Shown here: positions 3,166 through 39,866 of the stretch, piece by piece
Numbering within the stretch: position 1 is the first letter of the stretch
How the letters are laid out: each line of letters opens with the position of its first letter
NCBI RefSeq assembly: GCF_017348835.2
Contig: NZ_CP071375.1
Length of the DNA: 64,000 nt
From: Escherichia coli
GTDB taxonomy: Bacteria > Pseudomonadota > Gammaproteobacteria > Enterobacterales > Enterobacteriaceae
Reading direction: 5' to 3' (one strand)
Notes under the pieces: generated by a model
Told to the model about the DNA's origin: nothing
The model's input: the letters and a program-made list of their open reading frames with translations, nothing else
Database searches by the model: none
Translations under genes and position numbers: made by a program

Positions 3166-6102
<2,937 letters not shown>

Positions 6103-32526: not shown

Positions 32527-34077
32527 TCACAAATGTTGCTCGGCCCAGCGTAAGAAATCTTCTTTCGGTAATGCCTTGCTGTAGAGCCAGCCCTGACCGT
32601 AGTGCACGCCATGCTGGCGTAGCCACTCTTCTTGTTTACTGGTTTCGATTCCCTCCGCTACCATTTTCAGTTTCAGTGTTTTTGCCATTTCGATGATATG
32701 CGGCGTGACATTTTTATATTCCAGCGCATCAACGAAAGATTTATCGATCTTCAGAATGTCGACATCCAGATCCTGTAAATAACTTAAACTTGAATACCCC
32801 GTACCAAAATCATCAAGATAAATTTCATGGCCCGCCTCCCGGTAGCGAGAAATTATCGGGGCGCTGGTTTTCGGATCGGCAAACTCGCGTTCAGTGAGTT
32901 CAAGCGCGATCTGTCTGGGATTAACCTGATAGTGATTGATCATTTCACGCAGCAATTGCGGGATTTTTTCCGAGGTGAGCACGGTGGATTCAAGATTGAT
33001 CGAAATATGCTGCTGTGGATGCTGACGCAGCCAGTCGCCCATATCTTCAAAGACGCTTCTTATAATCAGTAGCGTCAATGGCTCAGAAAGGCCCGTTTGC
33101 TGTGCCAGCGGAATAAAACTATCTGGTGACAACCAACTACCGTCTGTCTGCGGCCAGCGCGCCAGTGCCTCAGCACCGACAATTTTGCCATTGGCTAAGG
33201 AGACAATCGGCTGATAGTGCACGCAAATATCACGATTTTCGATAGCATCCTGCAGCCGATGATGCGGTGACTGGATACGGCGCAAAATACGCAGCACAAA
33301 CATCGCTGCCAGCAGGCCAATCACCAACCCGAGCGGTAACCAAATAAAGACTTGCCGATGCCAGCCTTTCTGCAACATTTTCGTTGAAGCCCAGGTGATG
33401 ATCGAAATATTCATCTCCGGGAAGGGCAGGATATCGTAAATGATTCCATTATTTTCGATATGCTCACCGGGTGTTTTTTGTAGCCTGGTAATAATTCCCT
33501 GAGCAATTTCATCGCTGCTGGTTATGACAACGTTATGGGCATTGCCAATAATGGCGGCATCAATTTGCCATGAGCTATAGGGAATGACATCAATAAAGGA
33601 AGCGGGGTCGATCATGACGACATAATGTGCCGTTCCCATGGCGACCATGTAACGGATAATGCCTAAATCGTTATGCGATGTTAACCAGACACGATAACCA
33701 TCTTTCGAAATTTTACCTGGCTCGGGGAAGGTATCGGGCGGACTTTCATGCTCCAGAGACGAACACTGGGGAACGTTGTTATCGATATAAACCACTTCCT
33801 GAATATAGCGATAACTGTAAGATACCCGACGCATTTCCATGAGATGGGCTTCGCTACAGGCAGCGCCTTGCCATCTTTCCAGCTCTTGCAGCGCATCTTT
33901 CCCTTGTGTCGCCACCTTATTGGCCCGAATAGCGACGCGGGAGGAATAGGTATTCAGCTCTTCAATAAACGATGTTTCTACCTGCTGATGGGCCAGCCAG
34001 ATGCTTAAGCCGACAGGCAGCAATACTGAAATAATCAGTACTCCCGAAATAAGGCCGACCAGATGTCGTGTTCTCAC
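32527..34077 (-). CDS. pdeB: c-di-GMP phosphodiesterase PdeB (YlaB), CSS-motif sensor plus EAL domain, 516 aa (GTG start; upstream ATG at 34083 would give 518 aa)
   Basis: ORF-track 32527..34083 minus; EAL-domain motifs (QIALELTE, DDFGTGYSSL); N-terminal TM then periplasmic domain. Confidence 0.88.
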   Translation of the reverse strand: MRTRHLVGLISGVLIISVLLPVGLSIWLAHQQVETSFIEELNTYSSRVAIRANKVATQGKDALQELERWQGAACSEAHLMEMRRVSYSYRYIQEVVYIDNNVPQCSSLEHESPPDTFPEPGKISKDGYRVWLTSHNDLGIIRYMVAMGTAHYVVMIDPASFIDVIPYSSWQIDAAIIGNAHNVVITSSDEIAQGIITRLQKTPGEHIENNGIIYDILPFPEMNISIITWASTKMLQKGWHRQVFIWLPLGLVIGLLAAMFVLRILRRIQSPHHRLQDAIENRDICVHYQPIVSLANGKIVGAEALARWPQTDGSWLSPDSFIPLAQQTGLSEPLTLLIIRSVFEDMGDWLRQHPQQHISINLESTVLTSEKIPQLLREMINHYQVNPRQIALELTEREFADPKTSAPIISRYREAGHEIYLDDFGTGYSSLSYLQDLDVDILKIDKSFVDALEYKNVTPHIIEMAKTLKLKMVAEGIETSKQEEWLRQHGVHYGQGWLYSKALPKEDFLRWAEQHL

Positions 34078-34240
34078 CAGCATATCCTTATTAACACAGT
34101 GTAGGGAAAGTATATCTGATTGTGGAAAAAGGCTGGCAGGAGATAAGGAGGTAGAGCTGGTATTTCATGAAGTGATGGGTGGAAACGATCATTGTCATTT
34201 GACCAGGCGCAGAGCTTTACGCCTGGTATGTAACCCTAAC

Positions 34241-34711
34241 TTAAGATGTTGATTCGGCGCGAGCGAGGGTAAAAATATCGTAAAAAGACAGTTCACCTTT
34301 ACGGACGATCATTTTTTGCAGTTGTTCCTTATGAACATCCGCGACACGCGGAGAGTTCAAGATGGCTTCAACCAGCGCGGCAGGTACAAAGCGCGTGTTG
34401 TACCATTCGCCGTTATAGCAAACGCGGAAATCCAGCACGTCGATATCTTCATAGCGGTAGCGTGGGTAGACATCGAAAAAGAAGAAACCATTAAGCAGGA
34501 TAAATAATACAACCAGTAGCCAGACAGAGCCTGAAAGCGTTTCGGACTGCAACATCACCGCCAGGGTGGCAAAAAAAGCAACGTACATACCGATAAACAG
34601 CCCCGGATGTTTACGGATAAAACTGATACTAAAGCGGGGTTTGTTGTCGCGTTTTTCGCGGGTATTCAGAGACTCAATCGTTTCGGTCAGCAGGCGTTGT
34701 ATTTCGGTCAT
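34241..34711 (-). CDS. ylaC: Inner membrane protein YlaC, 156 aa
   Basis: ORF-track 34241..34750 minus; start at [15 protein letters not shown]; two predicted TM helices. Confidence 0.88.
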
Positions 34712-34826
34712 CGTTTGCCTTCGTGGTATCTGCAACTTTCCAGGGAACACCCTATTTTAACGTGGGAATAGTAGAGGGAAAGTAACAGATTTACCACAAT
34801 TTTGCATAACAGTTGCGAAAAACCGA

Positions 34827-35378
34827 TTACAATTTTTTAATCATTCTGGCTGGATTACCGCCCACGACAACGTTGTCCGGGACATCTTTTGTGACAACTG
34901 CACCTGAGGCTACCACGACGTTATCACCAATGGTCACACCAGGGTTAATGACCGCGCGTCCGCCAATCCAGACGTTATTACCGATGGTGACGGGTTTCCC
35001 CAGTTCAGCACCGCTATTACGTGCTACAGGGTCGATGGGATGTGTTGCCGTGTAGATATGAACGCCTGGTGCCAACATACAGTTATCACCGATGCGAATA
35101 GGGCAGACATCAAGCATCACGCAATCGAAGTTGGCGAAAAAATTATTACCGAGAAAAATGTTATAGCCATAGTCACAGCGAAACGTTGGCTCAATATAAG
35201 CCTCTGTCACCTGACCGAATAAATCAGCGAGAATTTGCTGGCGTAATGTGTGCTCTTCCGCCAGGGAATGATTGTATCGGTGAATAAGCTGACGAGCGTG
35301 CAGGCGATCGCGAGATAACGTCTCATCTGCCGAGCGATACAACTCACCAGCAATCATCTTTTCTTTTTCTGTGCTCAT
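34827..35378 (-). CDS. maa: Maltose O-acetyltransferase Maa (hexapeptide-repeat family), 183 aa
   Basis: ORF-track full length; left-handed beta-helix hexapeptide repeats ([14 protein letters not shown]..., [25 protein letters not shown]). Confidence 0.93.
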
Positions 35379-35455
35379 TACTGACCTCCGGTTGCTGAAA
35401 ATGCGGCAACACAGTAAGACGAAAAGTCAGTGAAGAGAACGTTCCCATTACATCT

Positions 35456-35472
35456 GTGTGATAAAGATCACA
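35456..35472. promoter_or_regulatory. CRP-like site TGTGA-N6-TCACA upstream of maa
   Basis: Both consensus CRP half-sites with canonical 6-bp spacer read in sequence about 85 bp upstream of maa start; function inferred. Confidence 0.45.
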
Positions 35473-35549
35473 TAGGGTATGTCTTCATGGCGAAAAAGTA
35501 TAAAATTCTTAATAAACAGCCGGTTATAGCTCCGAAAGCGAATTATTTA

Positions 35550-35768
35550 TTAGCGAATAAATTTCCATACTGAGGAAGGGATCTTGTCGTACAGTTTATT
35601 CATGGTCAATTCGGCGAGGCGGTGATCTGCGGCTGAGTAAAATACCGCCAGTTCATTATCTGATAATTCGTATTTATTTTTCTCGATAACACGCTCCAGC
35701 GTGTCAATTGTCTGGCAACGACGTAAACGCATTAAATAATCGGTTTTCGTTAAAGGTTTTTCGGACAT
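35550..35768 (-). CDS. hha: Hemolysin expression-modulating protein Hha, 72 aa
   Basis: C-terminal 72 codons of ORF-track 35550..36014; start at [20 protein letters not shown] to match known protein. Confidence 0.92.
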
Positions 35769-35793
35769 ACTTCTACCCATGGTTGTAATAATT

Positions 35794-36168
35794 CTAACAA
35801 GATAAACTCGCAGGATTCTCTTTCGTCGCATTGACAAAACAACGGAATAGTCGATTACCTGACTTCCGCCATTTCTGAAGATCCTGCATATTAATACCAT
35901 AACTACTGAACAACATAAAGGTGTCATCCAGATATTCGTCGATCTGCTCAATGAGCTTATTGTCTTCATTATACTTAATTTTGTAATTAAGTGCGAAGGT
36001 CGCAATATGCTCAATCAGTTCATTCAACTGGAGGTTGATCGCCGAGGTTGGGTCGTTAACCCAGCCATGATTGCTTTCTTCAAGGTTTGCAAGGCAGTCA
36101 TGATACAGAGTTTCACAGAGAAACTTAAGCTGTGCGATATCATGTCTTTTGGGTGAGTATTCATCCAT
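35794..36168 (-). CDS. tomB: Hha toxicity modulator TomB (YbaJ), 124 aa
   Basis: ORF-track full length; [31 protein letters not shown]. Confidence 0.92.

Positions 36169-36713: not shown

Positions 36714-39866
<3,153 letters not shown>

Follow-up and report, generated by a model that had tools for sequence, protein, structure and literature searches.

The closest described relatives of the maa promoter and its product are found in the lac and treBC operons. LacA, a paralogue of Maa, sits in the lac operon, and the class I sites from which CRP activates transcription are centered at -61.5, -71.5, -82.5, or -92.5. At treB, a TreR operator was reportedly described by Horlacher and Boos in 1997. 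TreC and the phospho-beta-glucosidases (AscB-type) release unphosphorylated sugar, i.e., free glucose, in the cytoplasm. Glucose is also the best substrate of Maa, and Brand and Boos are said to have found in 1991 that both glucose and maltose are acetylated by this enzyme. As for CRP, treB is a listed target that was recovered by genomic SELEX (Shimada 2011, PMC3105977). Here we describe how the maa locus compares with these systems. Probably, CRP bound to a high-affinity cAMP-CRP operator there activates a weak sigma-70 promoter in the class I manner, with a likely second, gene-specific input.

The window, i.e., the whole 64-kb stretch of DNA that was analyzed, matches the Escherichia coli chromosome, and its positions 35300 to 35650 were found in 5424 of 5426 complete E. 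coli genomes, where they are annotated as maa and hha. Both gene identities were confirmed against the RefSeq E. coli annotation. Window coordinates are converted to NC_000913.3 coordinates by adding 444,540 and to those of the older genome version used in the cited papers (NC_000913.2) by adding 443,764. Every local gene lies on the minus strand, in the order acrB (36714 to 39863), tomB (35794 to 36168), hha (35550 to 35768), maa (34827 to 35378; maltose O-acetyltransferase, 183 aa), ylaC (34241 to 34750), and pdeB (32527 to 34083). In our reading, maa is the gene served by the CRP site, and hha is its upstream neighbor on the same strand, outside the mechanism. The tomB-hha-maa-ylaC synteny was seen at the 7 enterobacterial loci with gene calls, and hha lay directly upstream of maa at the other 13.

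Two observations concern the maa gene itself. E. coli Maa is 61 to 72% identical over its full length to many Firmicutes proteins (Bacillales, Paenibacillus), and its identity to the proteins of some Enterobacteriaceae is 72 to 79%, i.e., the Firmicutes homologues are nearly as close. This level of identity hints at horizontal transfer of the acetyltransferase. In E. coli ML35, all similarity to the window ends just inside the maa -10 element (window positions about 35375 to 35415), and a "hypothetical protein" is annotated at the maa start region, indicating that a rearrangement or deletion has probably removed the start of maa in this strain.

The cAMP-CRP site, TGTGATAAAGATCACA (maa strand, TGTGATCTTTATCACA), occupies positions 35457 to 35472 and is the sole exact match to TGTGA-N6-TCACA (a 16-bp inverted repeat with a 6-bp spacer, 22 bp in its extended form) in the window. 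Shuffled windows gave an expectation of 0.08 exact matches, with 8 of 100 shuffles containing one. The bases flanking the pentamers fit the extended consensus TGTGAT...ATCACA as well. The preliminary description of this DNA had reported perfect half-sites at the correct spacing, as we also found; of the coordinates it gave (35456 to 35472), the end is right, but the start is one base too far to the left. The center of the site (35464.5) lies 86.5 bp upstream of the maa ATG (35378, minus strand), close to the figure of about 85 bp offered previously.

Scoring with a CRP matrix, a check suggested in the same description, was carried out with a symmetric position weight matrix derived from the in vivo CRP sites in Table 1 of Haycocks 2015, 106 in number once the maa site is set aside. 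The maa site scored 19.7 bits, against a matrix maximum of 22.0 bits and against 14.6 bits for the lac CRP site on the same matrix, and it ranked 3rd against the 106 in vivo sites. The second-best score within the window was 12.1 bits. By the exact score distribution, a score of this size has a P value of 1.9e-8 per position, corresponding to an expectation of 0.0012 sites in a window and 0.09 in a 4.6-Mb genome. A weak CRP-like sequence inside maa, AGCGATACAACTCACC (35333 to 35348; centered at about +63.5), is also listed in Shimada 2011; at 8.1 bits, it is probably nonfunctional, an artifact of the motif search.

Binding of CRP to the site is documented both in vitro and in vivo. By genomic SELEX-chip (Shimada 2011, PMC3105977), this exact sequence was identified in vitro in the "maa< <hha" spacer and maa was placed among 119 "newly identified targets" of cAMP-CRP; the lacZ fusions tested in that study did not include maa. 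By CRP ChIP-seq in enterotoxigenic strain ETEC H10407 (Haycocks 2015, PMC4287617), TGTGATCTTTATCACA was reported in vivo for ETEC_0511 (= maa), as one of 111 high-confidence peaks, and the H10407 promoter is the same as that of the window over the 72-bp core, with no differences. CRP occupancy, which had been named earlier as a check on the site, is thus borne out, and the earlier description, which named no documented CRP site here, needs correcting in that the site is listed in two genome-scale datasets. The CRP site was already known from these genome-scale studies and in itself adds nothing new. In a third study, the Latif 2018 Crp ChIP-exo analysis of K-12, maa is not mentioned in two supplementary files, which perhaps do not give all of the peaks.

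One feature of the ChIP-seq data could be taken as evidence against occupancy, namely, that the "peak center" listed for maa (540805 in NC_017633.1) lies 193.5 bp from the motif. The same kind of offset (170.5 to 204.5 bp) was found at the caiT, comR/bhsA, and rnk peaks. The gap of 193 bp between peak and motif is therefore a property of the table and does not count against occupancy, and we ruled out that interpretation. For all four of the peaks that were checked, maa included, the "peak centers" listed in Table 1 of Haycocks 2015 fall below the motif centers by 170 to 205 bp, a systematic offset that matters to anyone reusing the table. A separate genomic SELEX table, for FlhDC (PMC9962212), lists peaks at the maa/hha spacer (479234; window position about 35470), treB/treR, nagB/nagE, galE, and xylE. 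All of these loci have CRP sites, and what was recovered in that screen may be CRP-type sites and not sites specific to FlhDC.

A transcription start near 35404 and a -10 element at 35416 to 35411 were predicted from the sequence and from cross-species alignment, and the published start agrees with this prediction. In supplementary file 2 of Kim 2012 (PMC3415461), a maa start is given at position 479168 of NC_000913.2 (minus strand; 26-nt 5' UTR; 3 reads), which equals window position 35404 (479,944 in NC_000913.3), and the upstream 51-mer listed with it is identical to the window. Coming from one dataset and 3 reads, this start is the thinnest link in the chain. Its location fixes the position of the -10 hexamer, TACTGT (35411 to 35416, minus strand; -12 to -7), which matches the consensus at 3 of 6 bases, keeping T1, A2, and T6, and the pattern TAnnnT is conserved across genera. 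From the sequence and the published start, we place a weak -35 hexamer, TTCTCT, at 35434 to 35439 on the minus strand (-35 to -30), 17 bp upstream of the -10 hexamer and with 3 of 6 matches to TTGACA. The 5' UTR of maa (35379 to 35403, minus strand) contains the Shine-Dalgarno sequence GGAGG at 35385 to 35389.

Relative to the mapped start, the CRP site is centered at -60.5. It thus misses the canonical class I position, -61.5, by 1 bp, and CRP would be on the polymerase face of the helix. The core promoter is weak by several measures. Neither hexamer exceeds half of the consensus, and a consensus promoter scan left the maa promoter uncalled, as is expected of a weak activator-dependent promoter. 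The cells used by Kim 2012 for start mapping were grown in glucose M9 medium, and the low number of reads in glucose fits a cAMP-dependent promoter. The maa promoter, which had never been dissected before, thus turns out to have what looks like a textbook class I arrangement, with a CRP site that is predicted to be among the strongest in the genome.

To see what is conserved in this region, we compared the window with maa loci from 20 other Enterobacteriaceae (21 loci in total). A CRP site of 13.4 to 19.7 bits, centered 79.5 to 101.5 bp upstream of the maa ATG, was present at 19 of the 21 loci, the exceptions being Siccibacter and Klebsiella, and the best score among 67 maa loci of Firmicutes (organisms without CRP) was 12.0 bits. 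The half-sites hold while the N6 spacer and the flanks vary freely, and TGTGA and TCACA are perfect in all four Escherichia lineages. In a CRP-anchored alignment of 12 species, the only conserved blocks were GTGA...TCAC, a 12-bp palindrome, and TTTAc.gT (the -10 element), and the distance from the CRP center to the -10 element was fixed at 48.5 bp in all 12. Within E. coli, the 72-bp core promoter was identical in 3997 of 5424 genomes, and in 2 of 2 single-mismatch genomes sequenced, the change was T to C and fell only in the N6 spacer of the CRP site. The hha-maa spacers ranged from 131 to 284 bp, and the distance from hha to the site was unconstrained, in contrast to the constrained distances from the site to the maa -10 element and ATG. 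Such a pattern of conservation points to a functional activator site that serves maa, and it argues against both an inert site and a role at the hha 3' end.

CRP could nevertheless bind here without any effect on neighboring transcription. About a third of the CRP targets found by ChIP-seq are intragenic (Haycocks 2015), so binding without obvious regulation does occur, and crp-dependence of maa is not on record in the literature we searched, where no maa expression data from a crp or cya mutant were found. An inert site, on the other hand, would not be expected to keep its half-sites and an exact distance of 48.5 bp to the -10 element across genera while the surrounding spacer diverges, nor to lie where class I sites do with respect to a start that has been mapped. 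We therefore regard inert binding as unlikely.

A second possibility, raised in the preliminary description, is that the site acts on the 3' end of hha, e.g., as a roadblock or terminator element for tomB-hha transcripts. The site begins 78 bp past the hha stop codon and spans the stretch 78 to 93 bp downstream of it. The stretch from the hha stop codon to the CRP site (35473 to 35549) showed no convincing intrinsic terminator, with a folding z-score of -0.56, and tomB-hha transcripts may therefore continue toward maa or need Rho to end. Kim 2012 also assigns to maa a second start, at 479377 (window position 35613, minus strand; 7 reads; 235-nt 5' UTR). This start is inside hha, which implies a promoter within hha and transcripts that cross the CRP site. 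In addition, a scan labeled the palindrome "terminator-like." That match (35453 to 35476), however, is nothing but the CRP palindrome, called on the plus strand, on which no gene terminates; no T-run follows the palindrome on the hha strand. Moreover, it is the distance to hha that varies among species and the distance to the maa -10 element and ATG that is constrained. With the sequence between hha and the site unconserved and with no terminator-like structure in it, the earlier suggestion of an effect on the hha 3' region is not upheld, and we consider such a role highly improbable. A terminator reading of the scan match was likewise rejected, and the RNA downstream of hha folds no more stably than shuffled sequence.

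The symmetry of the site raises a third possibility, namely, that it drives a plus-strand promoter giving rise to an RNA antisense to hha. CRP sites work in both orientations, and an A+T-rich sequence, TATAAAAT, is present on the plus strand at 35499 to 35506. If TATAAAAT were the -10 element, however, CRP would be centered at about -46.5 to -48.5, out of phase with the known activating positions, and the hha-side flank is unconserved. In the rows of Kim 2012 that were examined around the locus, all starts are on the minus strand, and no Rfam family matched the region (35200 to 35900, E <= 1). An antisense promoter is accordingly hard to credit. A small open reading frame of 47 aa on the plus strand that overlaps the site (35430 to 35573) was also set aside, as the spacer is unconserved outside the regulatory blocks.

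The reading in which the CRP site serves maa, which the preliminary description had put forward as plausible, draws agreeing support from SELEX, from ChIP-seq, from the position at -60.5 relative to the mapped start, and from conservation across genera. On the basis of geometry and conservation, we infer that CRP activates maa rather than merely binding there, and its contact with polymerase would be of the class I type.

The second conserved block is a LacI/GalR-type palindrome of 12 bp, GGGAACGTTCTC (maa strand), at 35435 to 35446, which we regard as a candidate TreR operator. It starts ten bases downstream of the CRP 16-mer and covers the -35 hexamer, spanning -42 to -31 with its center at -36.5, so that it overlaps a core promoter element as a repressor site would. 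GGGAACGTTCTC shares 11 of its 12 bases with the treB-promoter palindrome, GGGAACGTTCCC, and is the sole match to GGGAACGTTCCC in the window at <=1 mismatch (0.08 expected). In MG1655, the treB promoter contains a perfect GGGAACGTTCCC at 18 bp from a CRP-like site, and the palindrome recurs without variation in the treR-treB spacers of Salmonella, Enterobacter, and Citrobacter, i.e., in four genera when E. coli is included. From its location and conservation, GGGAACGTTCCC is presumably the sequence that TreR binds at treB, in keeping with the operator reportedly described there.

Upstream of maa, a perfect GGGAACGTTCCC was present at 11 loci (S. enterica, S. bongori, E. cloacae, Kluyvera, C. 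amalonaticus, four other Citrobacter, and two Enterobacter), at 24 to 25 bp from the CRP center, or 18 bp in one locus. The palindrome had 1 mismatch in Pluralibacter and in E. coli, 2 in Cedecea and in Enterobacter sp. Ag1, and 3 in E. albertii and in a divergent Escherichia; Escherichia sp. ESNIH1 lacked it. In five aligned E. coli sequences, including those of MG1655 and the window, GGGAACGTTCTC was invariant. Given that the palindrome has the form of a LacI/GalR operator and that TreR is the repressor encoded beside treB, we infer that maa, too, is repressed by TreR, which would occlude the -35 region, at any rate in genera other than Escherichia. In E. coli, where the predicted operator is mismatched at one base, TreR control may be weakened, and for this species the TreR step is the weakest part of the proposed mechanism.

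It is also conceivable that TreR has no part in the second palindrome, which would then bind another LacI-family repressor or be conserved for a reason other than repression. TreR action at the maa palindrome is predicted from sequence, the E. coli copy is imperfect, and Klebsiella and Raoultella carry a different palindrome, which shows that repressor inputs to this promoter are open to change. Weighing against this alternative, 12 of 12 bases agree with the invariant treB-promoter palindrome of the same genera, and the placement of the palindrome relative to CRP and the -10 element mirrors that at treB. The GGGAAC half-site is not known to be that of Cra, PurR, RbsR, MalI, or GalR. The TreR regulog of RegPrecise for Enterobacteriales, with 8 sites in 8 regulons from 12 genomes, has one site per regulon and does not include the candidate at maa, which can be read as a further point for a non-TreR operator. 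Altogether, we hold a different identity of the palindrome to be a serious possibility, yet the less probable one. As RegPrecise has one TreR site per genome, a link between TreR and maa looks unreported, and no published one was found in the literature searched; Steen 2014 gives no operator sequence, and TreR falls outside the coverage of Shimada 2018 (single-target regulators).

The palindrome of Klebsiella and Raoultella differs from the TreR type. Their maa promoters are without a TreR-type palindrome and instead have GAAACCGGTTTC beside the -10 element, immediately upstream of TATACT (positions 645 to 656 of the Klebsiella locus, L084, and 649 to 660 of the Raoultella locus, L089). The same perfect 12-mer occurs in the E. 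coli ascG-ascF spacer (positions 3428 to 3439 of L100). Raoultella has a CRP site of 14.4 bits at maa, and Klebsiella has none. These observations suggest that the local repressor may have been swapped between lineages. The new content of this analysis is the dissection of the promoter, together with the TreR-type and AscG-type operators, both of which are predicted.

Taken as a mechanism, the arrangement would work as follows. In the absence of glucose, with cAMP at a high level, CRP would bind as a dimer at -60.5 from the start at 35404, on the same helical face as at lac (-61.5), and would recruit RNA polymerase, via the C-terminal domain of its alpha subunit, to the poor core TTCTCT-N17-TACTGT. 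TreR on the palindrome at -42 to -31 would block polymerase until trehalose-6-phosphate releases it. In this way, maa would gain the CRP-plus-repressor logic of treBC and of lacA.

The physiological meaning of this arrangement can be put forward only tentatively, at what we judge to be a little short of an even chance. The maa gene may be an unrecognized second target of TreR in Enterobacteriaceae, with a treB-like promoter (CRP at about -60 and GGGAACGTTCCC over the -35 region), and this input may be eroding in Escherichia and may have been replaced by GAAACCGGTTTC in Klebsiella and Raoultella. Because TreC and the AscB-type enzymes release free glucose, Maa could then be a safety valve that accompanies the breakdown of disaccharides taken up through the PTS. 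The analogy with LacA in the lac operon suggests that Maa may be induced along with the trehalose and beta-glucoside pathways. If this is true, it would give a physiological role to Maa, an enzyme long without a clear one, in parallel to LacA, and it would bear on the question of what sugar O-acetyltransferases such as these two are for. The conserved operator also suggests under which conditions maa may be expressed, namely, during trehalose catabolism and, in the Klebsiella lineage, beta-glucoside catabolism. The CRP site for its part bears out the place of maa in the catabolite-controlled set that genome-scale studies had already drawn up, and the call originally made from the sequence was accurate in this respect. 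More generally, the maa promoter may serve as a clean example of a global regulator being kept while the local repressor is swapped or lost between genera.

Among the CRP targets known from genome-scale screens, rnk, aroM, and ybiJ resemble maa in that they were recovered by both SELEX and ChIP-seq, have a motif in the upstream spacer, and are without a dedicated promoter study. Compared with the other genome-scale targets, the maa site is among the nearest to consensus, as its rank against the 106 others indicates.

The treB promoter of the treBC operon is similar to that of maa in having a CRP-like site upstream of a palindrome and a distance of 48.5 bp between the CRP center and the -10 element, the same as at maa. 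The two promoters differ in the spacing of the palindrome from the CRP center, which is 18 bp at treB (about -42.5) and 24 to 25 bp in most maa promoters (about -36.5). They also differ in the strengths of the two elements. The CRP site of treB is weak (4.7 bits) and that of maa is near consensus, whereas GGGAACGTTCCC is perfect at treB and matched at 11 of 12 positions at E. coli maa, where control by TreR is a prediction.

Like maa, lac P1 combines a CRP dimer about 61 bp upstream of a weak sigma-70 start with an operator of the LacI family, activation being predicted in the case of maa, and the CRP centers of the two promoters, at -60.5 for maa and -61.5 for lac, are 1 bp apart. The likeness extends to the products, as the lac operon, too, encodes a hexapeptide-repeat sugar O-acetyltransferase, LacA. 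Unlike the genes served by lac P1, maa, a single gene, has a promoter to itself, and its candidate operator lies over the -35 region (-42 to -31), whereas the lac operator lies over the start site.
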